Assembly: GCA_964453225.1 (NCBI GenBank)
Contig: CAYVNS010000006.1
Span: forward strand, 9,036-73,035
Origin: an uncultured Rhodospirillaceae bacterium
Lineage (GTDB): Bacteria; Pseudomonadota; Alphaproteobacteria; UBA9219
Direction: 5' to 3'
DNA length: 64,000 nucleotides
Position numbers and translations under genes: made by a program
Part shown: positions 8,734 to 33,087 of the stretch, in pieces
How positions within the stretch are numbered: the stretch's first letter is position 1
Layout of the letters: the number at the start of each line of letters is the position of its first letter
Notes under the pieces: generated by a model
Told to the model about the DNA's origin: nothing
Database searches by the model: none
Seen by the model: only the letters and a program-made list of their open reading frames with translations

Positions 8734-8735
8734 GC

Positions 8736-14334: not shown

Positions 14335-14478
14335 CCCGCCTCGATTATTTAATCAATAAAGCAATAATATCAGCCCATTATTACACAGACTGGTTAACAA
14401 AGACAATTCGTAAAACACGCAAAGGGATGGACATTGCGCCGTCTTAATCATAAAACTAATTTTCATAAAGGATTTCAG

Positions 14479-15961: not shown

Positions 15962-18900
15962 TCACGTCCTTATGATCCACCTGTTCAGCATCGCGGCAAT
16001 CTGTTCCTGCTTAAACGGCTTGTTCAAATAATCATCCATGCCCGCATCAAGGCATTTTTCCCGATCGCCTGTCATGGCGTCCGCCGTGAGCGCGACAATA
16101 ATCGTGTGATTTTTTCCGTTGGCCTCTTCCTCCCGGATGCGGCGCGTCGCCTCGAAGCCGTCCATGATCGGCATTTGGCAGTCCATGAAAACAATATCGT
16201 ATTTCGTTTCCCTAATCTTGGCGACGCCCTCCTCGCCGTTGTAGGCCGTATCGATGGATGTGACTTCCATTTTTTCGAGGATTTTCTGCATCAGCATCTG
16301 GTTGACCTTCATATCCTCGACAAGAAGAACGCGCGCGCCCTGGAACGACCCCTTTTGCTGGCGGGCCTCGGCATCGCCGTTTTGAAGCTGCGCGATCATG
16401 CTGCGCGTCAGAAGCCCCCTTTTGTCTTTCTTCTGATAGCCGTCCCACAATATTTTAAAGGCGTCTTGCAGCTGATCGGGGAAAAGAGGCCGTGTCAGCA
16501 AGGCGGCGCGATCCGTGCATTTCAGGATGCGCGTGGCCGTTTGCGGCCCGAAAACGGCGGCTATGACAAACATGACGTTGCGCACTTCGTTCGGTATTTC
16601 CTTCGCATCCATCAGTTCCAGAATTCTTTGGACGCCGATCTTGTCGTCGACGTAGACGAAGTGGAAAGCCGCGCCATCCTGGCTCGCATCTTTCAATTGC
16701 TGAAGAAAATTCTGGAAATCGTCGCAAAAGCTGCCGGCCATTCCCCATGCCTTAAGGTAATCGCCGATTATCTTGCGCTTAATATCGCCATCGCAGAAAA
16801 CAAGCACGCGAAGGCCGCGGATATCGATCGGCGGGACTTTAGATATATCGTTAAGGGGCCTTGGGAGATTGATGTCAAAATGGAAATTGGATCCTTTGCC
16901 GACTTCGCTATCGACCTTAATTTCGCTTTCCATCAGATTGATCAGCAGTTGGCTGATGGCAAGGCCGAGACCCGTGCCGCCAAAGCGTCGCGTCGTGGAT
17001 TCCTCGGCTTGCGAGAACTTGTTGAAAATGTGCGCCAGATGCTCGGAGGCAATGCCGATGCCCGTGTCTTTGACGCTAATGGAAAGCCTTGTGTCGCTTG
17101 CCCCGACATTCCGGCTTCCTATATCGAGGAAAACATGGCCTTTCGGCGTAAATTTAATGGCGTTGCCCACAAGATTAAGGACGACCTGCTTGATGCGCAG
17201 CACATCGCCGATCAAATAGCGCGGAGTCGCCGGATCAATTCGGACAATCAGCTCGATTCCTTTTTCATGCGCGCGCAGAACCAGCATGTCGGTGATTTCC
17301 GCCATCGCCGAATAAAAATTGAACGTCACAAACTCCAGCTTCATGCGGCCGGCTTCGATTTTGGAAAAATCGAGAATATCGTTGATGATCTCCAAAAGGC
17401 CCATGCCGGAGTTGTAGATGATTTCGGCCCAGCTTCGCTGTTCGGCGTCGAGCTTCGTATCCATCAAGAGCCGCGCCATGCCAAGCAGCCCGTTCATCGG
17501 CGTGCGTATTTCGTGGCTCATGTTCGCAAGGAAGTCGCTCTTCGCGGCATTGGCCTGTTCGGCCGCAAGCTGCGCTTTCATCGCTTTCGTTTGCGAAACT
17601 TCGATTTCGCCAATGAACAGCTGCAACTGCAATTCGCGCGCGCTGATTTCCTCGACCTGCTGTTCCAAAAGAGCTTTATTTTTTTCGACTTCAATCTGCT
17701 CCAGCGTTGCTTCCGCGCGGTTGTAGTTAATGCAGTTCCCCGGATGATCGTTGCCCTTTAATATCGCGGTGGCAAAGCGGCGGCAGCTGCCGTAGCCGCA
17801 GGAAAAACAATCGATGTGCCGGCTTTCTTCATCCAGTTTGTGAAGTTTCGTGAAAACCTCGTCGTATTGTTCTTCGCTGAAGCTTTCTTCTTCCGACCGT
17901 TTTCTTTTATCGACGTAGCTGCGAAGGAAATCATCCAGTTTCAGGGTTTTATCGAACTCCTTAAACAGGGAATAGACAACCTTGCCGTCTTCGGTTTTCT
18001 CTTTCTCCTGCAATTTCTGCACCTTCAAGGCGTTGATCTGCGAGTCGATGTCGTCGATGCAGGCGTCCTTGCATGTGCCGGTGCCAAGATTGCATCCATG
18101 CGGGCAATTTAATACATCGAGGAAGAGAGGCAGGCTTTTTCCCTCCCTTATGCGTTCGGAATATTCCGAAAGATAGGTATACGCGTGGTCGACGCCTTCG
18201 ATCTGGCGCACCCATGCATGGCCTTTAGTATGATATTCAAGATTTTCCCTTAGGCCTCCCGGGCGGCAAAAAACCATCCCGATTCCGCAGCCGACATCGT
18301 CGAAATCCTTTTCAAGCTGGTTATCGAGGCGAATATTATGGGCCGCCATATACGCGGCCAGCTTTTTGAACGTCACGTTGTAGGAAACGATATTGCCCGT
18401 GTCCCGGAGTTCCTGCGTTTTTCCGAGACACGGTGAGAGAAAGGCTATTTTGTCGTTCACGCCGACATAATTTCTCATGTAGATGGCCGAACAAAGCGCG
18501 GGGCTGTGAACCGGGGCGAGATTCTCTATGAGCTCGGTCTTGTGCTTTTCAATAAAGGAAACGATCGGCGGGCACGGCTGCGCGATGATCGAGGCCAGGC
18601 GCTTGTCATCGACCACTTTCAGATAAGCCCACGTCGTAATATCCGCGCCGAAGGAAACGTCGTAAACGAGGTTGACGCCGAGGCTTTTCAATAACCCGAA
18701 AAGTTTTTTGTAATTGGCGACGTTGTATCGAATGGACGGCGCCGCAATAACCGAAATTTTTTCGCCTTTGGCAAGATCGGAAAAAAAGGCTTCTGTGTCG
18801 TCGATGTAGTCGCGGGCGCCGTGCGTGCAAACCGCTATGCACTGTCCGCAATTAATGCAGCGGTCGGGATGAATGCGAACCTTGTTCTTTCCGTTTACAA

Positions 18901-18994
18901 CGTAGGCCACATTCGCGTCCTCGACAGGGCAGCGGGCAATGCATTTGTTGCAACCGATGCATTTGCTTTCATCGAGAACGATAATGTCGGGCAT
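15962..18994 (-). CDS. Hybrid sensor histidine kinase with N-terminal 2x[4Fe-4S] ferredoxin and [FeFe]-hydrogenase-like (H-cluster domain-like) sensor, HisKA, HATPase_c, C-terminal receiver
   Basis: CIGCNKCIARCP and CINCGQCIAVC are ferredoxin motifs. QPCPP, LSPCLGKTQE and LNCPHGCNLGTG correspond to the three [FeFe]-hydrogenase signature motifs TSCCP, MPCxxKxxE and ExMxCxxGCxxG, with reduced cysteine content. The H-box is ANMSHEIRTPMNG, the G-box is [10 protein letters not shown], and the receiver has DIVFMDCQMPIMDG and a T/K pair. Confidence 0.8.
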   Translation of the reverse strand: MPDIIVLDESKCIGCNKCIARCPVEDANVAYVVNGKNKVRIHPDRCINCGQCIAVCTHGARDYIDDTEAFFSDLAKGEKISVIAAPSIRYNVANYKKLFGLLKSLGVNLVYDVSFGADITTWAYLKVVDDKRLASIIAQPCPPIVSFIEKHKTELIENLAPVHSPALCSAIYMRNYVGVNDKIAFLSPCLGKTQELRDTGNIVSYNVTFKKLAAYMAAHNIRLDNQLEKDFDDVGCGIGMVFCRPGGLRENLEYHTKGHAWVRQIEGVDHAYTYLSEYSERIREGKSLPLFLDVLNCPHGCNLGTGTCKDACIDDIDSQINALKVQKLQEKEKTEDGKVVYSLFKEFDKTLKLDDFLRSYVDKRKRSEEESFSEEQYDEVFTKLHKLDEESRHIDCFSCGYGSCRRFATAILKGNDHPGNCINYNRAEATLEQIEVEKNKALLEQQVEEISARELQLQLFIGEIEVSQTKAMKAQLAAEQANAAKSDFLANMSHEIRTPMNGLLGMARLLMDTKLDAEQRSWAEIIYNSGMGLLEIINDILDFSKIEAGRMKLEFVTFNFYSAMAEITDMLVLRAHEKGIELIVRIDPATPRYLIGDVLRIKQVVLNLVGNAIKFTPKGHVFLDIGSRNVGASDTRLSISVKDTGIGIASEHLAHIFNKFSQAEESTTRRFGGTGLGLAISQLLINLMESEIKVDSEVGKGSNFHFDINLPRPLNDISKVPPIDIRGLRVLVFCDGDIKRKIIGDYLKAWGMAGSFCDDFQNFLQQLKDASQDGAAFHFVYVDDKIGVQRILELMDAKEIPNEVRNVMFVIAAVFGPQTATRILKCTDRAALLTRPLFPDQLQDAFKILWDGYQKKDKRGLLTRSMIAQLQNGDAEARQQKGSFQGARVLLVEDMKVNQMLMQKILEKMEVTSIDTAYNGEEGVAKIRETKYDIVFMDCQMPIMDGFEATRRIREEEANGKNHTIIVALTADAMTGDREKCLDAGMDDYLNKPFKQEQIAAMLNRWIIRT

Positions 18995-19171
18995 TCGAAA
19001 AAACCGGAGAGGAAGGCCAAGCGGAGGGAGCCATAAAGTGTAGCTATTGATAGTTATAAAAAGGTTACTAAAATAGATACAACGCCTGACTAACCGCTTC
19101 AGATTTATGAAGAAATGTCAGGCGCAAAACCCGAGCGGCGCGCCTTCGCTTTAGGAAAATGGTTGCAGGCT

Positions 19172-19504
19172 TTATTTTCTCTCGTTAAGCGCTTTTTTAA
19201 CCTTTTCCAGCTCGGCCTCCATGTCGGCAAGCATCGCTTTTTTTGCATCGGCGCCTGATTGAAACTCATCCTGCGCCTTTTTGCATATTTCGCCAAGCGG
19301 CGCAGCGCCAAGATTAAAGCTTATGCCCTTAAAAGCGTGCGCATGATCCCGCCATGCTTTTTCGTTGCCGTTAGCCAGCGCTTCATGAAGGCCGTTGACG
19401 CATTCAACGGACGAAGAAAGGAAAAGCTGAAAAAGCTCGGCCTCCATGGCGGAATCGCCCCCCGTAATGTCCTGAAGATTGCTAAAATTTACTGATGGAT
19501 CCAC
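19172..19504 (-). CDS. Hpt (histidine phosphotransfer) domain protein
   Basis: A 110-aa helical protein with a conserved His in HAHAFKGISFNLGA. It lies between the response regulator and the hybrid kinase. Confidence 0.7.
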   Translation of the reverse strand: MDPSVNFSNLQDITGGDSAMEAELFQLFLSSSVECVNGLHEALANGNEKAWRDHAHAFKGISFNLGAAPLGEICKKAQDEFQSGADAKKAMLADMEAELEKVKKALNERK

Positions 19505-20459
19505 GAACGCCTCCCTTGTGGCTGATCACATAGCGCTCGATGTAATCCAGCACCTGTTTCTTGGTGTACGGCTTCATGATAAAGCCGTCGACATTGTTCT
19601 GCCGCGCAACGCCAAGTTCGCCTTCATATGTGTTAGCGGTGACGATAATCACCTGCGCCATCGGGTCCAATTCCTTGATCGCACGAGTCAGCGAGTGGCC
19701 GCTGCCGTCGATCAAGCCCAGATCGATGAAAGCGATATCATGGGCTTTCTTGAGAAAAAGATCCCACGCCTCCCTGATGGTTTGAACCGCATCGACGGAA
19801 GGCGCCTCGCGCGTGCTGGATCGCGCGCCGCGCAGGATTTCGCAAAGCAGCCTTTGCGAAAAAATTTGATCTTCGACTACAAGAATTTGCAACTGCTTGC
19901 GAAACGGGCGCTGATCCCTGATTTCTATGTAGGAGGTCACCTGCTCCGGCGTAACGGAAAAGATGCTTTTAACGCCTTTTTCTTTTTCCGTATCGTCATC
20001 GTCATCCAGATCGAACGGGCTGGCGTCTTGCGGCAAGGGGCCTTTGATTTTCGGCTTTAACGCATTCGCCTGCGAGGATTTCTCAATTTCCGCTTCAAGA
20101 GCCGTTTTAAAATCAGCGCCGCGAGCCTTCGGATCCATGTAGGAAATAACGGCCAAAGGCTCGGCTGCCATGCCCGCTTGCACCAGGTTCGCAAGCACGA
20201 CTCCGCGTATATGCTTGTAAATCGCTTTTTGCTCCCCGCTCCAGGCAATATATATATTCTTGTTATCTGAAAAATAAATCTGCGCCTCTTTTGCTTCCTG
20301 AATGGCCGGCGTAACAGCAAGAAGGAAAGCTTCGTTCGTCATCGTCTTCAGGTTGTTGCGACGAATGCAGGCTACGCCCCATGTCGAATCGCCTTTCTTT
20401 GCGATTTCATCGACCAAAGAAATAAGGGGAATTAGGCTATCATATTCAACGGCATCCAT
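19482..20459 (-). CDS. Response regulator: uncharacterised ~160-aa N-terminal domain plus C-terminal receiver, no recognisable DNA-binding output
   Basis: The receiver is LQILVVEDQ...DIAFIDLGLIDGSG...IIVTAN...KPY. The N-terminal domain is homologous to that of the regulator at 46511-47287. Confidence 0.7.
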   Translation of the reverse strand: MDAVEYDSLIPLISLVDEIAKKGDSTWGVACIRRNNLKTMTNEAFLLAVTPAIQEAKEAQIYFSDNKNIYIAWSGEQKAIYKHIRGVVLANLVQAGMAAEPLAVISYMDPKARGADFKTALEAEIEKSSQANALKPKIKGPLPQDASPFDLDDDDDTEKEKGVKSIFSVTPEQVTSYIEIRDQRPFRKQLQILVVEDQIFSQRLLCEILRGARSSTREAPSVDAVQTIREAWDLFLKKAHDIAFIDLGLIDGSGHSLTRAIKELDPMAQVIIVTANTYEGELGVARQNNVDGFIMKPYTKKQVLDYIERYVISHKGGVRGSISKF

Positions 20460-20925: not shown

Positions 20926-21019
20926 GGAGACGTGGCCGAGTGGCTGAAGGCGGCGGTTTGCTAAACCGTTATAGGTTTGTAAAGGCCTATCGAGGGTTCG
21001 AATCCCTCCGTCTCCGCCA
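20926..21019 (+). tRNA. tRNA-Ser (anticodon GCU), CCA encoded
   Basis: GGAGACGTGGCCGAGTGGCTGAAGGCGGCGGTTTGCTAAACCGTT followed by a long variable arm, then GAGGGTTCGAATCCCTCCGTCTCCGCCA. The anticodon loop TTGCTAA gives GCT. Confidence 0.9.
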
Positions 21020-21073: not shown

Positions 21074-21131
21074 TTAGAAGTCATCATTCTACTCTTTAAT
21101 AAGCCTCTTTCTTATTAACGGATAATACACT

Positions 21132-21164
21132 AACCTTTAATAAGATGGTTCCTTATTAAAGGTT
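21132..21164. promoter_or_regulatory. Perfect 13-bp inverted repeat with 7-nt spacer immediately upstream of the fic start
   Basis: aacctttaataag atggttc cttattaaaggtt. Confidence 0.4.
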
Positions 21165-21171
21165 GGGCTTT

Positions 21172-22350
21172 ATGGAAAAAGCATCAAACAAGAACAGACT
21201 CGGCTCCTACGTTTCTCGGTCTAGCGCCGGAGAAATGTACAAGGCCTTCGTACCCCCTGCTCTGCCGCCTGATCCGCCGCTTGATATGGATAGACTATAC
21301 AAACCACTCGACAAGGCCATGAAGGCTTTGGGCGAACTGGATGCTTTGGCAAAGCTTCTTCCGGATATAGGCCTTTTCCTTTACATGTACGTTCGTAAAG
21401 AAGCCCTCCTATCTTCGCAGATAGAAGGAACTCAGTCGTCTTTATCCGATCTTCTGCTTTTTGAAAATCAGGAAAAGACAAATGCACCGGCGGACGATGT
21501 CGAGGAAGTTTCAAATTATATCGCCGCGCTTAATCATGGACTGAAGCGGATGAGGGGAGGTTTCCCTTTATCGACCCGCCTTATACGCGAAATGCACGCT
21601 ATTTTATTACGCGGCGGGCGCGGTTCCACTAAAGCGCCTGGAGAGTTTCGCCGCTCGCAGAACTGGATTGGCGGCACCAGGCCCGGTAAGGCTCGTTATG
21701 TCCCCGCTCCACCTGAAATGGTTGGCGACCTTATGAGCGATTTGGAAAAATTTATCTACACCGACAAACAAAGCCTGCCGACTTTGATTAAGGCAGCGCT
21801 CGTTCATGTGCAGTTTGAAACGATCCATCCTTTTCTCGACGGCAATGGACGTCTGGGGCGGCTGCTCATTACCTTGTTGCTCTGCGCTAACGAGACGCTG
21901 GTTCAGCCGATTTTGTACCTCAGCCTGTATTTTAAAGAACATCGGCAGATTTATTACGATCTTCTGCAAGACGTCCGATTGAAAGGCGATTGGGAAGAAT
22001 GGTGTGAATTCTTCCTTGATGGAGTGCAGGAAACGGCAACCAAAGGCTCGGCTGACGCGAAAAAAATTATTGATCTATTAGAGCGCGATCGCAAACGTAT
22101 CGGCGTGATCGGCAAGGCATCAAAGAGTGCATTAAAAGTTCATGAGTATCTGCTGAAGAAACCGTTTCTGTCGATCACCAAGGCATCAAAGACGCTTAAG
22201 CTATCTGTTCCGACCACAACGAATGCCGTGCAGAAATTAGTGAAGATCGGGCTCCTGAAAGAACTAACCGGCGGCGCACGAAACAGGCTTTTCGCATATA
22301 CCGATTATCTGGCCATTCTAACTGTTGGCACCGGGCCGCTGAAGAAATAA
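21172..22350 (+). CDS. fic: Fic family protein (AMPylation/Fido domain)
   Basis: The Fic motif HPFLDGNGRLGRLL is present. The track ORF starts at an upstream TTG, but the ATG at 21172 (MEKASNKN) is more likely. Confidence 0.85.
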   Translation: MEKASNKNRLGSYVSRSSAGEMYKAFVPPALPPDPPLDMDRLYKPLDKAMKALGELDALAKLLPDIGLFLYMYVRKEALLSSQIEGTQSSLSDLLLFENQEKTNAPADDVEEVSNYIAALNHGLKRMRGGFPLSTRLIREMHAILLRGGRGSTKAPGEFRRSQNWIGGTRPGKARYVPAPPEMVGDLMSDLEKFIYTDKQSLPTLIKAALVHVQFETIHPFLDGNGRLGRLLITLLLCANETLVQPILYLSLYFKEHRQIYYDLLQDVRLKGDWEEWCEFFLDGVQETATKGSADAKKIIDLLERDRKRIGVIGKASKSALKVHEYLLKKPFLSITKASKTLKLSVPTTTNAVQKLVKIGLLKELTGGARNRLFAYTDYLAILTVGTGPLKK

Positions 22351-22361
22351 AGCAGCTAAAA

Positions 22362-23768
22362 TCACCCAACAAGTTGCTCAGCGTCGTTCTCCATTCTTTC
22401 ATAAAAACTGCCGAGGTCATTTCCCAAATGGAACTGGCTATTGCAACGATTTCTTGGAAGAAACAAGCCATATAAATCGGATTCCGTCATATACTCGTCA
22501 AACGAATAAGGAAGAGGAAACAGTTTGAATTTCGACATATAGTCTTGAACCGCCGCTTTGATAGTCTCCGGCGATGCATTTTTAAATATCAGCCGATACA
22601 TCATTTCGGCCACAAAATCGAAGTCTTTTTCCTTTAAACCTCTTCTTGTCGCCGACTGGACGCCGAGCCGGAATCCATAAATATTGTCTTCTTCCGACAG
22701 CACGACATTGTTTGTTCTAATGCCGCCCTTATTCAAAAATTCTCTTGTTACAAAATCGGTGCGCGCCCAATCGCCTATTGCCACATGCACTTGATTTGTT
22801 TGCGTATAGCCGAATACATCCCCTCTTACGTTAAAGCCTCTTTCGGCAAGAACCTTCGCCAAACGCTTGGCATTAAGCTTGGTTTGCAGGGCATAAGAAG
22901 CGCCAAAATATTTTATCTCTAAAAGCGTGACGTAGAAGTTGATTAAAAGTTCCGAATGGCAATTGCTTTGCAGTTTTGGGAAAACACACGGAGAGATTTT
23001 GTCGCACAATGCCCTTGAATCCGCATATCCAACATACCCCTTCTGTGGCCCCGGGATGGTTTTGTGCGTGCTTCCGTGGATAATATCGGCCCCCACATCA
23101 ATCGGATTGGGTAATGTGCCGGTTGCAATAAAAAGCCCGTCATGACTTGCGTCGTAGGACAAAACGACGTCCTTTGGAAGCGCTCGCCTTATCTCCTTAA
23201 TGTCTTGCATCCGTAATTTATTGGATTGGTCAAGCATCACTACCCGAATTTCAGGATGCTTTTTAATCGTCTCAGACAAAGCTTCCGCATCGATAAGAAG
23301 GCTATCTTTCTTGACTTTAAAATAATAACTATTAACTCCTAATTGTTCCGCCATCCCATCCAGTGCGAAATGCCCTCCGTCGCTTCTGGAAAAATGAACA
23401 ATGCCATCTCCTCTCCCGCACAAACCGAAGAGAACCGCATGTTCGCACCCTTCTCCGCCGTTGGGCCTCCAATCGAAATATTTTGTACCGAAGATTTCGT
23501 TTCCCAGAGAGATAAGCTCTGCATTAAAACGATCTACAGCCTCGCTTCGCGGATAGAAAGTCTTGAATTCATAGTTATCGACAGGAGGCTGGAAATCGTA
23601 AAAGCTTGAGCTAACGAAGTTATGTGCGCTGCGGACGTGAAAACTTGGATAATTCTCGTTCGCGGTCAGAGAGATGCAATTTTCATGATGCTGCGCATCT
23701 TCAAATAGCCTGTTGGCAATGTTCCTGACCAAGGAACGATAACCTGACTGAATATCACTATTATCCAT
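22362..23768 (-). CDS. Serine hydroxymethyltransferase-fold PLP-dependent enzyme, strongly divergent (candidate aldolase/transaldolase)
   Basis: LTANENY resembles SHMT LIASEN. DGGHFALDG resembles GGHLTHG. HGSTHKTIPGPQKGY resembles TTTHKTLRGPRGG with the PLP lysine. The 468 aa protein diverges elsewhere. This is the last gene of the AT-rich operon. Confidence 0.65.
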   Translation of the reverse strand: MDNSDIQSGYRSLVRNIANRLFEDAQHHENCISLTANENYPSFHVRSAHNFVSSSFYDFQPPVDNYEFKTFYPRSEAVDRFNAELISLGNEIFGTKYFDWRPNGGEGCEHAVLFGLCGRGDGIVHFSRSDGGHFALDGMAEQLGVNSYYFKVKKDSLLIDAEALSETIKKHPEIRVVMLDQSNKLRMQDIKEIRRALPKDVVLSYDASHDGLFIATGTLPNPIDVGADIIHGSTHKTIPGPQKGYVGYADSRALCDKISPCVFPKLQSNCHSELLINFYVTLLEIKYFGASYALQTKLNAKRLAKVLAERGFNVRGDVFGYTQTNQVHVAIGDWARTDFVTREFLNKGGIRTNNVVLSEEDNIYGFRLGVQSATRRGLKEKDFDFVAEMMYRLIFKNASPETIKAAVQDYMSKFKLFPLPYSFDEYMTESDLYGLFLPRNRCNSQFHLGNDLGSFYERMENDAEQLVG

Positions 23769-23849
23769 TTTTCGTCAATCCCGTTTGGGGCAATGCCGGC
23801 GCACGACTCTTTTGCGCCGGCAGCAGCATCTATCCATCACAAGGCGGCT

Positions 23850-24905
23850 TTAAAGCGCACTACTTTGCTTTTTTGTCCAAAATTTTTTCAAGACCTCATC
23901 CATCGTCTCAATATCGATGTCTAAATATTTGATGAGGTCGAGGGTTGCCGGAGGTAATGATTTAACCTCCTCGCTGACCAGAAGCTCTTTGGCTTCCTGA
24001 ATTGAAATTTCCCCGAACTTCAGAAGGTTGCTGACTTGGACATTCTTTCCGCAATATCCATGCTTTTTGTATTTAAAATATTCCAGTATGGGGTTGATCT
24101 TGCAGTCGGCGTGGAAAAACTGTCCTTTCGGATGCCTCCAATCGTACAATTCCTTAAGTTTCTTGTTGACCGCATGATAATCGCTATCGACGTCATAAAA
24201 ATCTGGCAAATCGACGGTCAGAAACTTGGGCCTCCAATTCTTAATATGAAGGAAATCAGCATTCCGGTTCAAATCTTCTTTCGTGATGTTCTGCTGTTTC
24301 GCAAAAGACTCAATCTTCTTATTAAACTCTTCCTCGGATTTTGCATAATATCCGCTGTAATTGCTGTCGATATAATTGTAATCGAATTTCGAATTGATGC
24401 CGCGCAGATATATGGGCACATCGTATAACTTGGCTGCCATTGCAACGACATACTCATGGCCCTGATGGCATGGAGAGCAAAATTCACCGTAATTCACCAA
24501 GAAACCCCTAGTTATCTTTTTATTGAAGGCCTCATTAATCTTGAACGTTATGAAGTCAACTCCTTGAACTGAAGAACACCGGTCCATATTGAACTTGGCC
24601 TCATCGGTAACAAATCCCGTGTCGTAATAGACGGCCAACGGCACAAGTCCCAGATGGTTCTTGACATAGTCGAGCATGAACCCGCTGTCTCTTCCTCCCG
24701 TAATTCCAATAATACAATCGTATTTTGAAGTGTTTTCCGCGGCGACTTCTCTTACTTGTTCCAAGCTCATGGAGAGATTGTCGTTCGACAGCATCTGTCC
24801 CGGACTTTTGGTCACGTCGATATCCGATGAACAATAATTGCATCCCTCTTGCGTCGCATTAATGACATCGCCGGGCATTAAACATTTCTTACAATTGCCG
24901 CACAT
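23850..24905 (-). CDS. PP-loop ATP pyrophosphatase-family amidotransferase with N-terminal Cys4 ribbon (N-acetyl sugar amidotransferase-like)
   Basis: CGNCKKC...CNYC at the N-terminus, then the PP-loop IGITGGRDSGFMLDY. The ~350 aa architecture is as in WbpG/WbuX-type amidotransferases. Confidence 0.6.
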   Translation of the reverse strand: MCGNCKKCLMPGDVINATQEGCNYCSSDIDVTKSPGQMLSNDNLSMSLEQVREVAAENTSKYDCIIGITGGRDSGFMLDYVKNHLGLVPLAVYYDTGFVTDEAKFNMDRCSSVQGVDFITFKINEAFNKKITRGFLVNYGEFCSPCHQGHEYVVAMAAKLYDVPIYLRGINSKFDYNYIDSNYSGYYAKSEEEFNKKIESFAKQQNITKEDLNRNADFLHIKNWRPKFLTVDLPDFYDVDSDYHAVNKKLKELYDWRHPKGQFFHADCKINPILEYFKYKKHGYCGKNVQVSNLLKFGEISIQEAKELLVSEEVKSLPPATLDLIKYLDIDIETMDEVLKKFWTKKQSSAL

Positions 24906-24914
24906 TCCTTCCTC

Positions 24915-25808
24915 CTATGTCTGAGTGAGTATTGTTTCGGGTTTTTGCGTGCGCGGGCCCTTTTCCGCTTGGAGACGAAAATCGCTCGCAGGATAAACCC
25001 CCATGACCGCGACTTCCTCGGCGTAGAAGGAAAGCTCCTCTATCGCCAGTTTCATAAGTTCTTCATCGGGATGTCCTTCGACGTCGATCCAGAATTGCGC
25101 TACGCTGAAGCCGCCATCTGCAAGATAACTTTCAAGGCGCGTAATATTGATTCCGTTGGTGGCGAATCCGCCTAACGTTTTGTAAAGTGCGGCAGGAACA
25201 TTGCGTACGCGATAGATCAATGTCGTAATACATGGCCCGTCGCTGATTTCCGGACGCAAAGGCGTGGGCGATAAAATCAGGCATCGCGTCGTATTGCCGC
25301 GTACATTGGCAATGTCGGCCGCGAGGCTTTGTAAACCATAAAGTTCTCCAGCCAACTTTGAAGCAATGGCGGCAACCCTCACATCGCCCAACTTCGCCAC
25401 TTCCTCAGCCGATCCGGCCGTATCCGGGCGAACGATGGGGTCGATATTATGCGCTTTCAGCCATTGGCTGCACTGCGGCAAAGCATGGACGTGGCTACGC
25501 ACCTCCTTGATGTCGGCCAATGTCGCATTCGGCAGTGCAAGCAAATGATGCTCGACAGACTGGTAATGCTCACCGATGATATAAAGACCGCTTTTGGGCA
25601 GAAGATAGTGAACGACAGCAACTCGACCGGCAACTGAATTTTCAACAGGGATCATGGCCTGATCCGCCCGCCCTTCATGCACGGCCGTGACGGCTTCCCC
25701 GACGGTCGTACAAGAAACGGTTTCGTAGTCCGGCAAGGCCTCACGGCAAGCCAAATCGGAGTACGCGCCCGGAACACCCTCAAATGCAATGCGTTTAGAC
25801 ATTATCAT
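24915..25808 (-). CDS. pheA: Prephenate dehydratase with C-terminal ACT domain
   Basis: RIAFEGVPGAYSDLA...IPVENSVAGRV and the TRL and ESRP-like regions, at 297 aa. Confidence 0.8.
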   Translation of the reverse strand: MIMSKRIAFEGVPGAYSDLACREALPDYETVSCTTVGEAVTAVHEGRADQAMIPVENSVAGRVAVVHYLLPKSGLYIIGEHYQSVEHHLLALPNATLADIKEVRSHVHALPQCSQWLKAHNIDPIVRPDTAGSAEEVAKLGDVRVAAIASKLAGELYGLQSLAADIANVRGNTTRCLILSPTPLRPEISDGPCITTLIYRVRNVPAALYKTLGGFATNGINITRLESYLADGGFSVAQFWIDVEGHPDEELMKLAIEELSFYAEEVAVMGVYPASDFRLQAEKGPRTQKPETILTQT

Positions 25809-25862
25809 ACCTCTCTTCTTGGGTTGAACACTTCACCATACGGGCAACAATTTATGGAGAAG

Positions 25863-27635
25863 TCAACCACAAGCAATTCCTTTTCCCCTTGGTTTTGCGT
25901 TTGGCAGAGGAAGGGAGGGTCCATTCGCCATGTATTGCTGATCGAATTCTTTCTTTGCTTGACCGAGCTGATGAACAAGCTCTGCGGCGCTTTCCCGATC
26001 CATGTACGGATTAAGGATATAATATCTTAGCGCAGTAACGCCTTCTCCGATCGGAGCATAGAAAGCGGCGGCAGTCTTCCCTATGGAAAAGCCATTTTCG
26101 CCTTCAACGTGATTGGCTTGCAGCCAATCATAGAATTCGGAATTGTACTCGTCTGTTTCCGACAATGCTGCCGCATCGAGCAACTCCCGCTCATGCTCTT
26201 TACAAGGCTCCGTTCCGGGGGGGAAGGCGCGCACATATACGTCGGAGCCGAAAGACTGCCGGTTTACGACATAAAGTCCCGTTTCAGAAGATTTTTCATT
26301 TATGCCGTCTCTGATGAGCTCAGCCATTTCCAACGCATGACCGAGCAGGACTTGGTACCCTTCTTTGCCGAAAGCTTTTGCCGTGATCCATGTCCCCACC
26401 ATGTTGGCAGCCGAACGCGAAGTCTCCAACGAATACTTTCCAGGATGATAGTCGTTCGGATCGAAAAATAACGGCGTCATCATCTGGCTTTCGCGTCCAA
26501 GATTGGAAAGATCTTGCTTATTCCGCGCGATCACGACGCTTGAAACATAGGGAACATATCCGGTCTTGTGAAAATCCAATCCGATGCTGTCGGCATAGCG
26601 GAAAGTTTTGACAAGCTCGGTCGTACGCTGAATCTTGCCAAGAACTTTTTCGCTGAAACCCAGCGGATTTTTTGCAAAGTCATAGTCTGCAAAGTGCAGG
26701 TACGCCCATCCGATAACGCTGTCGCTATGAATATGAGGAGAATAATCCAGTGCGAATTCCTCGACCAAACGATCGCGCATCTCAGCCATATCCTTGAAAT
26801 TGTCTATGCCCATATTCGAGGTAGTGCCGCCAACTCCGACAATGCAAGCAATCCTCTTTCCCGCCTTGATTTGCTCCCTGCAAATTCTTTCCATATGGGC
26901 AAGATCCGTTGTTTGATCCATGTTGGATCGCGCCATCAGATAGTTATTGCGACCGAGGCCAAGCCAATTTGTGGAGTTTTGCTGAGCATAATGAGCGGGC
27001 ACTGAACCGACGATAACAAGGTTTCCTTTGCTTCCTTCAAAAATGAAATCGGGATCGGCCTTGGATATCCCCATTTTAAAGCCATACAAAATCGTAGCGG
27101 TTCCTCCGAATGTAAACAGCCCCCCTGCCTGCGCCGGATCGTAACCGGCCATTTCTGAATATACCTTTGAGATCGATATCTCGGCATTCAAAGCATTGGC
27201 TGCATATTCGCTCGTGACGGCATTCGGCATATACAAAGACGTCACTAAATGACCGGCAAAGTATGTCCACGACGGAACCGGGATCACGTTCTTGTTCATC
27301 TTCACATGGCTTGCTTTAACAATCCCTTCAAGCTCATTGGGAAGAGAGGAAATCGCCGCGAAAGGATTGACGGTAAGATTTTCGGGCAAGCGCGCAACCC
27401 TAACGACTTCTTCGAAAGGCAAAGAAGGGCTGGTTCGCCGATAGGTTGGCCCCGAACCCTCGTTTTCCATCGTGACATCGACGGCCTCGCGCAACAGAGA
27501 AATCATTTTTTCTTTGTTGCTCCCGTCGGGCGCGAGGAAATAATTGTTTCTAAGGCACGTCAACAATTCTTCGTATTTGCGCGCTTGCGGCGGTGCTTCC
27601 AGAAAGTCGCCATCGAAAATCTGACCCACACTCAT
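25863..27635 (-). CDS. Group II pyridoxal-dependent amino-acid decarboxylase (aromatic/tyrosine-decarboxylase-like)
   Basis: DFHKTGYVPYVSSVV matches the DPHKMGYVPY PLP-lysine motif of bacterial tyrosine decarboxylases. The 590 aa size is similar. Confidence 0.65.
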   Translation of the reverse strand: MSVGQIFDGDFLEAPPQARKYEELLTCLRNNYFLAPDGSNKEKMISLLREAVDVTMENEGSGPTYRRTSPSLPFEEVVRVARLPENLTVNPFAAISSLPNELEGIVKASHVKMNKNVIPVPSWTYFAGHLVTSLYMPNAVTSEYAANALNAEISISKVYSEMAGYDPAQAGGLFTFGGTATILYGFKMGISKADPDFIFEGSKGNLVIVGSVPAHYAQQNSTNWLGLGRNNYLMARSNMDQTTDLAHMERICREQIKAGKRIACIVGVGGTTSNMGIDNFKDMAEMRDRLVEEFALDYSPHIHSDSVIGWAYLHFADYDFAKNPLGFSEKVLGKIQRTTELVKTFRYADSIGLDFHKTGYVPYVSSVVIARNKQDLSNLGRESQMMTPLFFDPNDYHPGKYSLETSRSAANMVGTWITAKAFGKEGYQVLLGHALEMAELIRDGINEKSSETGLYVVNRQSFGSDVYVRAFPPGTEPCKEHERELLDAAALSETDEYNSEFYDWLQANHVEGENGFSIGKTAAAFYAPIGEGVTALRYYILNPYMDRESAAELVHQLGQAKKEFDQQYMANGPSLPLPNAKPRGKGIACG

Positions 27636-27645
27636 ATGACGACCC

Positions 27646-28272
27646 CTATAGATTATATGAATTATAAACTCTTCCCCTCAGCAGAACGACACGCGACCGA
27701 TCCTCGTCCTTGCCGTACCACCCATAATTGCCGTCCCTAAGCCTGACATGGCGGACGTCGCAAGAACCCGGAACGGCTTCCGTGCTCGAGACGCACCAAC
27801 TGTTGTTGAAAGAGCCGGTGCCGATGGTCTTATTAAATCGATCGAGCAAGGGATTGGTCTTGCGCGTGGCCATGATCCTTTCGAGATCAGCATTTCTTGC
27901 AAGAATATAGGAACCAGACTTGAATTCGCCTTCCAAAACGGATTGGGCAATTTCGGATTCCAATCCATTCCTCACGCCTTTGCTAAGCGCGGCTGCGCAA
28001 TCAATGGCCTTGCGGCAATTCAGCTGCAAAGGCTCGCCACTGGCGTCTCTTACATAATCGGGGATCAAATTCAGCTTTACGGTATTGCCGTTTTCCGCCT
28101 CTATTTTCCCAAAAGGGATACCGGGATCCGTAATCGACCGGCCAAAAATGGCCGGGAACGTCAACTCCTCCGCCACAGCGACCGCTTGACTCCTGTAGGA
28201 CGATCTATTTTCCAAATTATGTCCCAATGCTTCAGCATAAATTCCTGTTGTTTTTTGAGAGATGTTTTGCAT
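27646..28272 (-). CDS. Hypothetical protein (208 aa), first gene of the AT-rich operon
   Basis: It lies 10 bp upstream of the decarboxylase on the same strand, with an AT-rich promoter-like region upstream. I recognise no motif. Confidence 0.45.
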   Translation of the reverse strand: MQNISQKTTGIYAEALGHNLENRSSYRSQAVAVAEELTFPAIFGRSITDPGIPFGKIEAENGNTVKLNLIPDYVRDASGEPLQLNCRKAIDCAAALSKGVRNGLESEIAQSVLEGEFKSGSYILARNADLERIMATRKTNPLLDRFNKTIGTGSFNNSWCVSSTEAVPGSCDVRHVRLRDGNYGWYGKDEDRSRVVLLRGRVYNSYNL

Positions 28273-28739
28273 AAAGCCGCTCCTTTCAAAGTAATTCAGT
28301 TAGGGCGCCGTAAACTCATCACAAGCGCATCGATCTCGATCTTTGCAGGGATTTGTGACCGGTCCGACAATAGAGACATTGAAAACACCTTGTTTCCCTG
28401 TAAAAGCATCCTCTTCTATAATCATAGTATTATGCGGCTTTATTCACCTTCAATCGATGTTTCCATCGGTATTCAATATACTACATATCTATTTTCTTCA
28501 TTTTCCCAAAAATTATCGCTTTTCAATATTGTAAAACGGTACTCATTTGATGCTCGATGATCCGCTTGATGTTTGGCGCCAAAAAAAAATGCGCAATAGC
28601 ATCAGAGGCGTTACAACGGACGGGCGCAATATTCTCGCTAGCTGCGGTTTCGGTTTCCATTTTGGGCGCGGGCCACGATAAATAATTTTCCGTTTGGAGT
28701 TTTCCAAAGATGAAATCGAAGAATGTTGGCACATGTCCG

Positions 28740-28960
28740 CCTTAAAGGCGATTGGGAAGAATGGTGTGAATTCTTTCTCGATGGAGTCATGGAAACGGCG
28801 ACCCAAGGCTCGGCTGATGCAAAAAGAATTATCAATCTGATAGAGCGCGATCGCAAACGTATCAATGTAATCGGCAAGGCATCGAAGAGCGCCTTAAAAG
28901 TTCATGCGTATCTGCTGAAGAAACCGTTCCTGTCGATCAGCAGGAACCAAAGACGCTTAA
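28740..28960 (+). pseudogene. Decayed copy of the fic 3' end (direct repeat of 21971-22200)
   Basis: LKGDWEEWCEFFLDGVMETATQGSADAKRIINLIERDRKRINVIGKASKSALKVHAYLLKKPFLSIS matches the Fic C-terminus and then is disrupted by a small deletion. There is no start codon or upstream part. Confidence 0.6.
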
Positions 28961-29697
28961 TCCACTGCAATGGTCATTGTGTTGATCCACGCTCGAACCA
29001 TTTTAGGGCTGGAAAATGCACTGTTGCATAATTTGCCTTTGCCAACGCGGGCTGCAATGCCACCGTTTTTCAGGCAAGCACCGATGGCGGATAGATCGGT
29101 TATATCGTCGCCAAGAAAAACAGGCCGTCGACCTTTAAAAGGCGCAGTCTTCATAAGCCGCTCAAGCGCTTGTCCTTTGTCATGAGTGGGCTGGGCAATC
29201 TCAAAAACTTTGCGGCCTCGAATGAGTGTGAGGTCAATTTTAGACTTGCCGATGAGCGCTGCCAGTGTCTTTTCTATTTCTTCGGCTTTTTCGAGCGACT
29301 GTCTGTAATGCACAGCGAGCGTAACGACTTTATCCTCGACACGAACGCCTTTTGTGTTTGCAAAAACCTCAGCAAACTCCAAACGCAGGGTTTCTGGCAA
29401 TGACGCGGTGCTCTTCACAGAACCTTGCGGCGATAAACGCCATTCAGCACCATGTGCGCCGGATGACGGCAGACGCAGGGGGGCAAAGAGTTTATCAATA
29501 TCGTCTATCGTGCGCCCACTGATGAAGGCCAGCGCGCCACCAAGTTTGTCATGCAACCGCCCAAGATCCTGAACCAGTTGCTTTGAGACAACCACCTCCT
29601 GAGCGGTCGGGGCAATATCGAGCAGCGTACCGTCTATATCAAGAAACAGGGCGTCCTTTTCGGGATTGAAGCGTAACCACATTTTTTGAAGTTTCAC
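28957..29697 (-). CDS. otsB: Trehalose-6-phosphate phosphatase (HAD superfamily)
   Basis: [10 protein letters not shown] and FLGDDITD HAD motifs. It sits downstream of otsA. Confidence 0.8.
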   Translation of the reverse strand: MKLQKMWLRFNPEKDALFLDIDGTLLDIAPTAQEVVVSKQLVQDLGRLHDKLGGALAFISGRTIDDIDKLFAPLRLPSSGAHGAEWRLSPQGSVKSTASLPETLRLEFAEVFANTKGVRVEDKVVTLAVHYRQSLEKAEEIEKTLAALIGKSKIDLTLIRGRKVFEIAQPTHDKGQALERLMKTAPFKGRRPVFLGDDITDLSAIGACLKNGGIAARVGKGKLCNSAFSSPKMVRAWINTMTIAVD

Positions 29698-31918
29698 CTT
29701 GGTCGGAAGATTCAGCGATAAAGTGTTCGATGTGCGCGCGCTTGCGCAGAATCGCGGCGTCCATCAAAATGCGCGCGGCCCAGTAATAGACGTTATTGTC
29801 ACGTATAAGCTCACGCATCAAATGCATACGGTCGGTCTGTTCCTCCTTCGGCATTGCTAGCGCCCTGTGCATGGCCTTGGCCATGCCTTTTGCGTCATAA
29901 GGATTAACCAGTAAGGCTTCAAGCATCTCTTTAGACGCTCCTGCAAACGTGCTAAGGATCAAAACCCCTTGCTCGTCGCTGCGGGCGGCGGCGAACTCTT
30001 TAGCGACCAGATTCATACCGTCGTGCAAGCTGCTAACCATGCAAAAATCCGCAGCGCGGAACAGTTCGAAGACCTCGCTTGGTTCGTGATGGCGGCCCAG
30101 AAGTATGATAGGCTTATATTGCTCGTTACCAAATTCGCGGTTGATCGCATCGGCAAGCTCGTGCGTCTCTCGCTGGATTGCCTGATAGGATGGTAACTTA
30201 CTGCGCGTCGGCGCGGCGGCCTGGATAAATATGACATTGCCAAGCCATTCCGGATAAGATGTCAGAAACTCGCGGATAGCTTGGAATCGATCAATAATCC
30301 CTTTCGTATAATCGAAACGTTCAATGCCGACGCCTATACGAACGTCCTTTTTCAGCCCGAACCGTTGTCGCACATTTTGGCGGCAAATATCCGCTGGAGG
30401 AACATCGGCCAGACCTTCCGGTGGCCAAGCAATGGAAATCGGATAAGGCCGGATCAGAGTTGAATTGTCGTCTGCCGTAATGAACGACTGATCGCGGTTA
30501 ATGTTGCTTTCAAGGAAACGATCCACCGACTCCATGAAGTTCTGGCAATGAAACTGGGTGTGAAAGCCTACAACCGAGCTTCCCAAAAGGCCGGACAGGA
30601 TTTCCTCACGCCACGGGCAGATGCTGAAGACTTCGGGGTTAGGCCACGGAATATGCCAAAAGGTGATGATGGTTGCTTCTGGTAACTGCTCTCGTATGTA
30701 ACGGGGTAGCAAGGCAAAATGATAATCCTGAACCAGAACGATGGGATTCTTTGTTTTTGCTTCTTTGACAACGGCATAGGCAAACTTGCGGTTCACGGCT
30801 TTGTATGCCTGCCAATCGCTTTCGCGGAAGTTAGGGCGCACGAAAGCGATGTGACATAAAGGCCAAAGCCCTTCGTTGGAGAGGCCGTAATAGTAACCTT
30901 CTTCCTCATCCTGCGTCAGCCAAACGCGACGCAGTGTGTATTCAGGATCGTCAGGAGGTACGGCTATACGGTCTTCCTTATCGACGGCACAACGGTCCGC
31001 CGAACCGCTGCCATGCGCAATCCACGTGCCCTTGCAAGCACGAATAATTGGCTCTAAAGCCGTAACAACGCCGCTGGCAGGACGTTGTAGACTGACTTGG
31101 CCATCCACAAGGTTGTGAATATATGGCTCACGATTGGAAACAACCATCACCTCGGATTCCGGCAGCTCCTGTTTCAGGAGTCGATTCAAGGTTTGAGGCG
31201 TCCAGTCCACCTTGATGCTATCAAGCGGAAACCCCCCGGGCTTAATATCGCGTAACATCTGCCGGACTTCGCGCACAATAGGCACGAACTCGCGTGGCAA
31301 GTGTTGTTTGGACAAACGCGCCTTAGGATCGCTCAAAGTGAGCCTGAGTTTTCCAAGCCATCCCCTCATGGTGATGCGAGCTGTTAGCAGAGTCACAAAA
31401 GCCGAGACACAGGTAACGGTGATAAGAAAACCGATAAGATAAAGTCGTGTTTCGCCTTCGCGCTTGGAGGCAAAACTCAAATCATGCAGGACGACAAAAT
31501 GGGGTTTCAATACATCTTCAACTGGAAGCCGGAAACTGCCGGAAAGAACGGCGCCCTTTTCCAACTTTTGCACCGAGAATTTAGGTTCCGCCTCTAATAG
31601 AGAAGCAGGACAATCGAAATTAAGCGGCCATTGCGCGCTTTTTGTGACCAGTTTGCCTTCGGCGGAGCAAATGCCAACGGCCAGAACACGCTCATCACGG
31701 GCAATATTGTCAAAAAGCTTTTTATAGGATTCCAGCCGTTTTCCTTGGTTCCATAGATCGGTTAGAGTGTATTCGACGCTTTGAAAAATCAAAGCGGTAC
31801 GCATCTTTACGTCCCTTTGAAACCAGCTAGAGACAAGACCATCCGCTAAGGGCGTGGCGAAAACGGCCAAACTTGTCAGGGCTAAAAGCAATGGAAAAAC
31901 AAAACGCAAAATGAACAT
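29639..31918 (-). CDS. otsA: Alpha,alpha-trehalose-phosphate synthase with ~270-aa N-terminal extension (signal/TM1, periplasmic segment, TM2)
   Basis: The C-terminal ~480 aa form an OtsA GT20 domain ([18 protein letters not shown]). The N-terminus has [21 protein letters not shown] and a second hydrophobic helix [22 protein letters not shown]. Confidence 0.8.
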
Positions 31919-32394: not shown

Positions 32395-33087
32395 ATGTCT
32401 CAAACTATATTAAAACCGCGTCAGATAAAGGCGGCTCGCGCCCTCCTCGATTGGTCGCAGGAAGATTTAGCCGAACAGGCCGCTTTGTCGGTCGCCACAG
32501 TTCGAAAGCTTGAAGCTGGCAATTTGTCTCCGCGCGGAAAAACCAATAATGCACTTCGCAAAGCCCTTGAAAACGCGGGGCTTGAATTCCTTGATCCGGA
32601 TGGTGTCCGTCATCGATCCGAAGAAATAATGATTATGGAGGGCGAGGAAGGAGTAAAAGAGTTCTATGACGATGTTTACAACACCGCCAATAAAACAGGC
32701 GGAGACGTAGTATGCGTATCTAAAGATGCGACTGTTTTTTCTCAGTGCCTAAGAGAACATAAACAGGCACACATCGACCGCATGGTGTCGATAATGGATA
32801 AAGCTTCCGTGAAGGTAATCCTCACGGGAAGCAAAACGTCGACGCCGGGAGCGGCTTATGCGGAATACAGATATTTTTCTCAGAGTCTGGTGGACTGCGT
32901 TTTTTTCTATGTCTATGGCGACAAATCGGCATTCAGGCTTCTTAAGCGCGATACTTTCCCTCGTTATATCGTCATTCAATCATCCGAGTTGGCCGACACC
33001 TTACGCCAGCAATTTTACTCCATGTGGGACAAAGCTTTGCCGGTGAGCGTTCCACAAAGAAAGACCTCTCAATCCAAAAGAGGTTGA
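32395..33087 (+). CDS. XRE-family HTH transcriptional regulator with uncharacterised C-terminal domain
   Basis: The N-terminus IKAARALLDWSQEDLAEQAALSVATVRKLEAG is a helix-turn-helix. Confidence 0.6.
   Translation: MSQTILKPRQIKAARALLDWSQEDLAEQAALSVATVRKLEAGNLSPRGKTNNALRKALENAGLEFLDPDGVRHRSEEIMIMEGEEGVKEFYDDVYNTANKTGGDVVCVSKDATVFSQCLREHKQAHIDRMVSIMDKASVKVILTGSKTSTPGAAYAEYRYFSQSLVDCVFFYVYGDKSAFRLLKRDTFPRYIVIQSSELADTLRQQFYSMWDKALPVSVPQRKTSQSKRG

Follow-up and report, generated by a model that had tools for sequence, protein, structure and literature searches.

The DNA analysed here is a stretch of 64,000 nucleotides (nt), hereafter the window, from an uncultured Rhodospirillaceae bacterium of the Alphaproteobacteria (assembly GCA_964453225.1, contig CAYVNS010000006.1, positions 9,036 to 73,035), and our subject is a five-gene operon that lies on its minus strand between two copies of part of a fic gene. 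An earlier note, made from the sequence alone, had described five minus-strand genes spaced 9-81 bp apart at this place and had proposed that they form a biosynthetic unit. All five open reading frames (ORFs) between the fic copies were found intact, with gaps of 81, 9, 54 and 10 nt, and profile searches together with searches of the Protein Data Bank (PDB) showed that the families it had proposed for four of the proteins were right in kind. The operon is read in the order orphan protein of 208 amino acids (aa), decarboxylase, prephenate dehydratase, PP-loop enzyme and L-threonine transaldolase. From low to high coordinates, its features are:

22362-23768, minus strand: predicted ObiH-family L-threonine transaldolase, last gene of the operon, 468 aa, matching PDB 7K34
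23850-24905, minus strand: divergent PP-loop ATP pyrophosphatase related to NASAT/WbuX, 351 aa, with a TIGR03573 match below the cutoff and a fold match
24915-25808, minus strand: prephenate dehydratase with a C-terminal ACT-like domain, 297 aa (NF008866, PF00800)
25863-27635, minus strand: divergent group II amino-acid decarboxylase dependent on pyridoxal phosphate (PLP), 590 aa (PF00282)
27646-28272, minus strand: orphan protein, first gene of the operon, 208 aa, with conserved motifs SWCVSSTE and DRSRVV
28273-28732, no strand assigned: AT-rich, non-coding leader upstream of the operon (GC ~0.41-0.44), presumed promoter region

The leader is a promoter region only putatively; promoter and terminator scans scored at or below chance, and no Rfam element was found in it. 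Those window proteins that were found in the protein collection each formed a singleton cluster.

The 468-aa product of the last gene matched ObiH (PDB 7K34) over residues 11-435 with an expect value (E) of 4.7e-114, as against 1.5e-38 for the best serine hydroxymethyltransferase (SHMT). It matched PF00464 at 80.8 bits and fell below the cutoffs of the SHMT models NF000586 (186.6 versus 335 bits) and NF010094 (49.2 versus 735 bits), and also below that of the fluorothreonine transaldolase model TIGR04506 (152.6 versus 650 bits, over profile positions 79-400 of 609 only). In ObiH, H131, D204 and K234 are catalytic, and Y55, E107 and R366 stabilise PLP (PMC10495429). All six residues are kept, Y57, E109, H133, D206, K236 and R367 corresponding to ObiH Y55, E107, H131, D204, K234 and R366; over the specificity loop of ObiH (Y55-P71) the sequence is wholly different. 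A neighbour-joining tree of 110 homologues placed the protein in a three-member clade with P0002 (82% identity) and P0003 (66%), sister to the large clade that contains ObiH and apart from fluorothreonine-transaldolase-like and SHMT sequences. Identity was 42% to P0012, a 440-aa Pseudomonas fluorescens protein that we take to be ObiH. Taken together, the matches, residues and tree placement identify the protein, at the level of sequence, as an ObiH-family L-threonine transaldolase of full length, and add a new member to that known family. They bear out the earlier suggestions that this SHMT-fold protein is not an orthodox GlyA and that it belongs to the transaldolase type that builds beta-hydroxy-alpha-amino acids.

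Transaldolases 45-46% identical to that of the window were found in a different, conserved four-gene cluster (L029:5212-9772, L030:4882-9456 and L031:4292-8866), in which the transaldolase is accompanied by an EamA exporter, a YbaK-type tRNA deacylase and a protein of 594-599 aa that contains a class II aldolase (F_bP_aldolase) domain; L030 additionally has, close by, a LysR regulator and a further aminoacyl-tRNA synthetase of class II. This cluster looks like an uncharacterised toxic amino-acid pathway with self-protection. Such sister clusters show that the transaldolase family has been used repeatedly in small free-amino-acid pathways.

The product of the neighbouring gene, the PP-loop enzyme, matched a single family, the N-acetyl-sugar amidotransferases (NASATs; TIGR03573), at 140.5 bits and so below the cutoff of 203.2, and matched no Pfam family. 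Hallmarks of NASATs are a PP-loop of the form SGGXDS and the tetracysteine motif CXXCXn[GN]XCXXC (PMC10607449). The window protein carries the PP-loop as TGGRDS, with Thr in place of Ser at the first position, and an N-terminal Cys4 ribbon formed by C5xxC8 and C22xxC25, both of which were invariant in alignments that included two canonical NASATs. The publicly available version of the protein (P0122, 342 aa) begins 9 codons further downstream and lacks the conserved C5xxC8; the 351-aa ORF, with its start codon at 24905, is therefore the better gene model. An AlphaFold2 model of the enzyme (pLDDT 76.5) gave LpNASAT (8WEX) as its best Foldseek match, at E 1.7e-10, a template-modelling (TM) score of 0.62 and 18% identity, followed by TtuA, NcsA, YcfA and LarE at TM ~0.3. 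The family is rare: an indexed search returned 13 relatives, a scan of JGI metagenomes with the PP-loop alignment recovered only two short contigs, both of the 45% clade, and a search of plasmids found no close relative of the gene (identity at most 25%). These results identify the PP-loop enzyme as a divergent relative of the NASATs, and its substrate is presumably an amino-acid-derived small molecule.

With NASAT/WbuX as both the best family match and the best fold match, one alternative is that the enzyme is an ordinary N-acetyl-sugar amidotransferase and that the block serves modification of lipopolysaccharide (LPS) or capsule; a cytidylyltransferase gene (14434-15291) and an acyltransferase_3 gene (34642-35892) do occur elsewhere in the window. 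These sugar-related genes, however, are at least 6 kb off, past signalling genes, and the operon and its variants in other lineages contain no hisH/hisF and no glycan genes. The two canonical NASATs (L027 and L028) both sit in glycan loci, the latter with hisH and hisF adjacent, whereas the window enzyme has no such gene, glycosyltransferase, flippase or sugar-nucleotide gene beside it, scores below the family cutoff and has the transaldolase and prephenate dehydratase as its constant partners. A role in LPS or capsule modification thus appears very improbable. The earlier note had named a position in a known LPS/O-antigen locus as evidence against its reading; no such locus surrounds the operon.

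In an Oligoflexia metagenome-assembled genome (MAG; L021:8745-14952), the PP-loop enzyme has a 44%-identical homologue whose flanking genes encode a bona fide D-Ala-D-Ala ligase, a YedE/PDZ fusion protein of 902 aa and a NifS-like cysteine desulfurase, with thioredoxin and rhodanese-helix-turn-helix (HTH) genes nearby. Next to the other relatives at ~45% identity, the only neighbour was a major facilitator superfamily (MFS) transporter.

A second alternative for the PP-loop enzyme is that it inserts sulfur and not nitrogen, in the manner of TtuA, NcsA, YcfA and LarE, giving a thioamide or thiocarboxylate. Consistent with this, those four enzymes come next after NASAT in the fold ranking, the PP-loop clade keeps C143xxC146 and C268 without exception (alignment A2), and the Oligoflexia relative stands directly downstream of the desulfurase and near the thioredoxin, rhodanese-HTH and YedE-like transporter genes. 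On the other side, the TM score to the sulfur transferases is only ~0.3, compared with 0.62 to NASAT, no sulfur-mobilising gene is present in the operon of the window or in those of L001, L017 and L022, described below, and the other 45% relatives adjoin nothing but the MFS transporter. The canonical NASAT of L028, in its glycan locus beside hisH and hisF, has the same three cysteines, which also weakened our initial candidate reading of the CxxC...C triad as the Fe-S signature of a sulfur transferase. We consider sulfur insertion improbable.

The 297-aa protein is a canonical prephenate dehydratase, scoring 388.3 bits against NF008866 (cutoff 359) and 168.4 bits against PF00800; its ACT domain, at 21.3 bits, was under the Pfam cutoff of 27. 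The 590-aa protein exceeded the PF00282 cutoff (40.9 versus 27 bits) and reached no NCBIfam equivalog cutoff, falling short of the tyrosine/aromatic decarboxylase equivalogs TIGR03811 (47.4 bits, cutoff 905) and TIGR03812 (42.3 bits, cutoff 299). Its N-terminal half drew diaminobutyrate-decarboxylase-like PDB matches (E 1e-12 to 1e-13), and its lysine motif, DFHK(357)TGYVPY, resembles the tyrosine decarboxylases 5HSI and 7CWX, a likeness limited to that region. In alignments to 8ZPI, 5HSI and 7CWX, its PLP residues, namely the stacking His, the Asp at the pyridine nitrogen and the PLP lysine, appear as H(214)Y, HSD(304) and HK(357). For the 208-aa orphan, profile searches found no match in Pfam, NCBIfam or the PDB, apart from a faint hint of Lcl_C in one member of its family (E 0.1). 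A profile search among 1.84 billion representatives gave 38 relatives, and its AlphaFold2 model, at pLDDT 41, was unusable.

The operon block was recovered in four lineages in unrelated contexts, namely the window and three other metagenomic lineages. In the first of these (L001), the C-terminus of the decarboxylase is visible, followed by the prephenate dehydratase, PP-loop and transaldolase genes in the order of the window; protein identity to the window is 82-86% for the three complete genes and 67.5% for the visible part of the decarboxylase. The second lineage, represented by three independent samples (L022, L023 and L024), has the orphan, a 118-aa ORF, the prephenate dehydratase, the PP-loop enzyme and the transaldolase. 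The 118-aa ORF is what is left of the decarboxylase after a clean, in-frame loss of residues 58-533, which correspond to window positions 26038-27465, and it is located as follows:

L022:10703-11059, L023:4187-4543 and L024:3671-4027: 118-aa ORF, deleted decarboxylase, with the other operon genes intact

In the third lineage (L017, L002 and L003; 66-77% identity), the order is PP-loop enzyme, transaldolase, Ddl-like ATP-grasp ligase (170 bits, cutoff 243), 98-aa ORF, prephenate dehydratase and RidA, then an IS66 element; both decarboxylase and orphan are missing. An enzyme dependent on thiamine diphosphate (ThDP) adjoins the L017 variant, and we tried it as a candidate ObaH-like arylpyruvate decarboxylase; it was rejected as a genuine acetolactate synthase large subunit (958.6 bits, cutoff 870).

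Prephenate dehydratase, PP-loop enzyme and transaldolase thus make up the conserved core, and decarboxylase, ATP-grasp ligase and orphan are variable. Pairwise ratios of nonsynonymous to synonymous substitution (dN/dS) were 0.04-0.09 for the three core genes, with dS running from 1.2 to saturation, from which we conclude that the block is old and under selection. Beyond the operon, no DNA similarity was detected between variants, and their sole shared flanking protein is a 36%-identical HTH_3 regulator. This XRE-type regulator, of ~230 aa, is encoded 3-4 kb upstream of the operon (window 32395-33087; L022:5635-6333), with otsAB in between in the window and genes for an ABC ATPase, a thioredoxin-like protein and DsbD_2 in L022; the pairing may reflect a linked regulator or a coincidence.

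Could the five genes be a chance juxtaposition without a common pathway? That no product is known and that decarboxylase and orphan are missing from some variants would fit. Against it, gene order has been kept while synonymous sites are at or near saturation, and the genes, on one strand and 9-81 nt apart, recur as a block in four unrelated contexts, so that chance seems hardly credible as an explanation.

Evidence for the accessory status of the operon came from its right flank:

28957-31918, minus strand: otsB-otsA, right flank of the operon, conserved in relatives without the operon

An OtsA scan, with one genome taken per species, yielded 13 otsA loci, mostly in MAGs labelled Rhodospirillaceae or Alphaproteobacteria. 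Twelve of the 13 had the arrangement otsA-otsB, with OtsA identities of 64-87%, and in none of these 12 related loci did fic or operon genes lie downstream of otsB. Beyond otsAB, no gene was shared with the window in any of the 12 relatives, and synteny was not conserved. Absence of the operon near otsAB in the 12 related genomes indicates that it is accessory; together with its recurrence in unrelated contexts, this upholds the earlier proposal that the five genes are one accessory, transferable biosynthetic unit. OtsA itself (29639-31918) is 759 aa long and carries an N-terminal extension of ~250 residues; typical trehalose-6-phosphate synthases are much shorter. The relatives (L004-L015) align to it from residue 1 where their contigs are complete, confirming that the extension is conserved.

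In the reaction of ObiH/ObaG, L-threonine is cleaved to acetaldehyde and a glycyl-quinonoid, which adds to an aryl-acetaldehyde derived from an aryl-pyruvate (PMC5490192, PMC10495429). In the pathway that we propose for the operon, the dehydratase would raise the supply of phenylpyruvate and phenylalanine. The transaldolase would then cleave L-threonine and move the glycyl unit onto a phenylalanine-derived aldehyde, most likely phenylacetaldehyde, to give a beta-hydroxy-alpha-amino acid of the 2-amino-3-hydroxy-4-phenylbutanoate type, in parallel to the ObaG/ObiH step of obafluorin. It is the presence of prephenate dehydratase in every variant that leads us to suggest phenylpyruvate or phenylalanine as the source of the acceptor, and a product of this type. 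By analogy with its family, the NASAT-like PP-loop enzyme might use ATP to adenylate a carbonyl oxygen, of an amide or a carboxylate, which a nitrogen nucleophile would then replace. Since the decarboxylase is dispensable in one lineage, we placed it as an optional tailoring enzyme or amine supplier and not as the source of the aldehyde; it would yield an amino alcohol or amine in the lineage of the window, and in another lineage (L017 type) the ATP-grasp ligase would replace it. The orphan protein may serve the same pathway, and the order of steps given here is the one that we infer.

We therefore read the region as a compact, accessory and horizontally mobile operon for a pathway, independent of nonribosomal peptide synthetases (NRPSs), to a phenylalanine-derived beta-hydroxy amino acid derivative, and we put the probability of this reading at about 0.6. 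The product class named in the earlier note, a phenylalanine- or phenylpyruvate-derived beta-hydroxy amino acid, amine or amide, remains the most sensible one. Several observations weigh against the proposal. The operon contains no enzyme known to make an aldehyde from phenylpyruvate, and no ThDP decarboxylase; nor is the PLP decarboxylase an obligatory aldehyde source, as L022-L024 keep the other genes intact after the deletion. The specificity loop differs so completely from that of ObiH that the acceptor could be other than an aryl-acetaldehyde, and the PP-loop protein scores below the NASAT cutoff (140.5 versus 203.2 bits). Exporter, regulator and self-resistance gene are all absent from the operon, whereas the neighbouring transaldolase clades have EamA and tRNA-deacylase genes. 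Finally, the prephenate dehydratase could be the only pheA of this organism, 64 kb of whose genome is visible.

The same absence of exporter, resistance gene and regulator would suit an operon for catabolism, salvage or detoxification, in which the transaldolase would catalyse the retro-aldol reaction of a beta-hydroxy amino acid taken from outside, and the resulting product would be degraded by the decarboxylase; transaldolase chemistry does start with retro-aldol cleavage (PMC10495429). Such a function is difficult to reconcile with prephenate dehydratase, a biosynthetic enzyme kept in all four variants, and with the lack in the operon of an uptake system and of the dehydrogenases or oxidases typical of catabolic operons. 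We judge it rather improbable, and retain the biosynthetic reading.

A bolder version of the biosynthetic reading, which we think possible and yet unlikely, is that the PP-loop enzyme, a rare NASAT-like one, has passed from glycan chemistry to a free beta-hydroxy amino acid or a derivative of it, where it might make an amidine or amide, catalyse ring closure or introduce sulfur. Together with the transaldolase, it would then define a new NRPS-independent family of small, bioactive phenylalanine- and threonine-derived compounds in uncultured alphaproteobacteria, with decarboxylase and ATP-grasp ligase as interchangeable tailoring enzymes.

The history of the site was approached through the features on the left of the operon and the repeat that brackets it:

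20926-21019, plus strand: tRNA-Ser(GCT), 144 nt upstream of fic (ARAGORN; Rfam tRNA, 60.6 bits)
21163-22350, plus strand: intact fic, 395 aa, with Fic_N, Fic and winged HTH domains (Pfam PF13784, 96.6 bits; PF02661, 76.7 bits; HTH_24)
21971-22200, plus strand: repeat copy 1, an internal segment of fic (nt 809-1038 of 1188, codons ~270-346 of 395), from repeat search and alignment
28733-28960, plus strand: repeat copy 2, part of a second fic allele with both ends missing, from repeat search and alignment

The intact fic gene is convergent with the operon, its stop codon lying 11 nt from that of the transaldolase gene. A repeat search of the window found a direct repeat of 208 nt, ungapped and 87% identical (21973-22180 and 28735-28942), and a MAFFT alignment widened the homology to ~21971-22200 and 28733-28960 (208-230 nt), copy 2 having lost 1 nt close to its right end. 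The repeat and the small deletion had both been seen before; their position needs correction. The recurring piece had been described as the last ~225 bp of fic, repeated at 28740-28960, and since fic ends at 22350 it comes from inside the gene: no second copy exists of the final 150 nt of fic (49 codons). Homology of copy 2 stops at 28960, and the stop codon of otsB (28957-28959) falls inside its last fic-derived bases, confirming that the fragment sits directly against otsB.

Nor does the fragment look like a tail that decayed in place. It still matched the NCBIfam Fic model (E 1.6e-4), and over 69 aligned codons it differed from intact fic at 27 positions, with dS 0.46 and dN/dS 0.155, values that indicate divergence of the two copies as functional genes in separate lineages. 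The fragment proves that a second fic allele was once present at the site, and it marks a past recombination or replacement there, next to tRNA-Ser. Because the fragment is internal and fused to the otsB stop codon, every history requires a deletion of its 3' end up to that codon.

According to the history first proposed, a segment with fic and the five genes recombined into a resident fic, the intact gene being the incoming one, which replaced all but the tail of the old. The origin of the copies, 13% different, from separate functional genes agrees with this, as do the tRNA gene adjoining the site and the frequency of fic relatives on alphaproteobacterial plasmids (a plasmid search returned 716 records at ~55% identity). 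As stated, however, the scenario misfits: the remnant is internal, without both ends and without the last 49 codons, and its junction with the otsB stop calls for at least one further deletion. Moreover, fic is unlinked to the operon in the other three contexts (L001, L017 and L022-L024; in L001 a gene other than fic lies downstream of the transaldolase), the composition of fic is indistinct from that of its flanks, and the opposite course, with an intact fic as the resident and a fic fragment brought in by the operon, agrees just as well. Among the 13 otsA loci, none showed an empty site with fic next to otsB; synteny beyond otsAB was conserved in none of them, and they therefore do not bear on the insertion point. 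The replacement scenario is only one of several compatible histories, in which either copy could be the resident, and we regard it as doubtful.

Composition gave a mixed picture of the insert, which had been described as AT-richer than its surroundings. GC content was 0.446 for the transaldolase gene and 0.426 for the PP-loop gene, and these two of the five genes, plus the intergenic regions, are clearly AT-rich; the description does not hold for the prephenate dehydratase (0.536), decarboxylase (0.492) and orphan (0.498) genes, compared with 0.492 for fic, 0.506 for otsAB and a window mean of 0.513. At third codon positions, GC content (GC3) was 0.47-0.57 for fic, the five operon genes, otsAB and three ORFs beyond (21.1-34.6 kb), and mostly 0.60-0.75 for housekeeping genes (rpe, argJ, xseA), with a few exceptions such as the thioredoxin gene (0.52). 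Low GC3 is shared across the whole of this tract, which starts at tRNA-Ser(GCT) and extends ~13.5 kb, and composition therefore does not delimit the 6.5-kb insert.

The tRNA-Ser gene is the left edge of the low-GC3 tract and possibly a recombination hotspot, its part as an att site being putative only. An 11-nt copy of its T-arm, GGTTCGAATCC, recurs at 21053, 34 nt downstream of the gene; no longer repeat of its 3' end was present in the window, the 25-nt end being unique at up to 3 mismatches. In agreement with the earlier note, which had seen no integrase in the window, no integrase domain was found among the scanned ORFs of at least 150 aa. A tRNA-linked integrative island, marked by an integrase and, at its other end, a second copy of the 3' end of the tRNA, is thus not what we observe. 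Between the tRNA and the fic start codon (21089-21162) are two 33-nt direct-repeat units of 76% identity, which also form a 31-nt inverted repeat rich in TTAATAAG and may be an operator or terminator-like element.

The wider window is chromosomal, containing rpe, argJ, xseA, ppdK, pepN and genes for thioredoxin and a class II aminoacyl-tRNA synthetase. A type III restriction-modification pair at 6202-10559 (res helicase of 843 aa and N6/N4 DNA methylase of 607 aa, GC 0.43-0.49) adjoins tRNA-Gly(CCC) (10876-10949) and is probably a separate small island. An unusual sensor module, of redox or H2 type, occupies 15962-20459; it consists of a 1010-aa hybrid histidine kinase, whose N-terminus bears 4Fe-4S ferredoxin and Fe-only-hydrogenase large-subunit-like domains, and, after it, an Hpt protein and a response-regulator protein.

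Orphan clusters are common. The five genes of this operon are nevertheless a minimal unit, small enough to be synthesised and expressed, and make up an experimentally tractable and credible orphan pathway. Natural variants that keep the decarboxylase, have lost it by deletion or carry a ligase in its place offer a ready comparison for the assignment of steps. As biocatalysts for beta-hydroxy amino acids, L-threonine transaldolases are in demand, and, to our knowledge, only a few of their natural pathways are understood (obafluorin, fluorothreonine and LipK-type nucleoside antibiotics); we know of no NASAT-like PP-loop enzyme outside acetamidino-sugar formation. If our reading is true, the operon would provide a new natural product scaffold, a transaldolase with a different specificity loop and a first small-molecule role for a NASAT-like enzyme. 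No description of a cluster combining transaldolase, NASAT-like enzyme and prephenate dehydratase was found in the literature searched or on plasmid records.

Among known systems, the ObiH/ObaG step of obafluorin biosynthesis in P. fluorescens (PDB 7K34; PMC5490192, PMC10495429) shares with the operon a full-length enzyme of the same family, with the 42% identity and the six residues given above, and a tie to a gene that feeds an aryl-pyruvate, suggesting an aryl-acetaldehyde acceptor and a 2-amino-3-hydroxy-4-arylbutanoate product. What sets the operon apart from the obafluorin system is its lack of an NRPS, of a ThDP-dependent arylpyruvate decarboxylase (ObaH) and of p-aminophenylalanine, nitro and dihydroxybenzoate genes. 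Its transaldolase has another specificity loop and is accompanied by a NASAT-like PP-loop enzyme, a PLP decarboxylase and an orphan, in an uncultured alphaproteobacterial host.

With the NASATs (WbuX/WbpG/LpNASAT; TIGR03573; 8WEX; PMC10607449) the PP-loop enzyme has in common the two-part fold (TM 0.62), the PP-loop, the N-terminal Zn-type tetracysteine motif and, presumably, ATP-dependent carbonyl activation. It departs from them in its 18-25% identity and sub-cutoff score and in lacking the ammonia-supplying partner hisH/hisF and a glycan locus, and its close clade is always paired with transaldolase and prephenate dehydratase.

The window operon, with its canonical aromatising prephenate dehydratase with an ACT domain in place of a BacA-type decarboxylase, is distinct from the bacilysin system, and it differs from both bacilysin and 4-fluorothreonine in having no exporter, deacylase or ligase. 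The sister transaldolase clades, with their EamA and tRNA_edit genes, do recall the 4-fluorothreonine arrangement of transaldolase, exporter and tRNA deacylase, and the Ddl-like ATP-grasp ligase of the L017 variant recalls BacD. Like bacilysin, with its BacA-type prephenate-utilising enzyme and BacD ATP-grasp ligase, the operon would be a compact set of genes that draws on primary metabolism, for an aromatic precursor or threonine, to make a non-proteinogenic amino acid in free form or a dipeptide.

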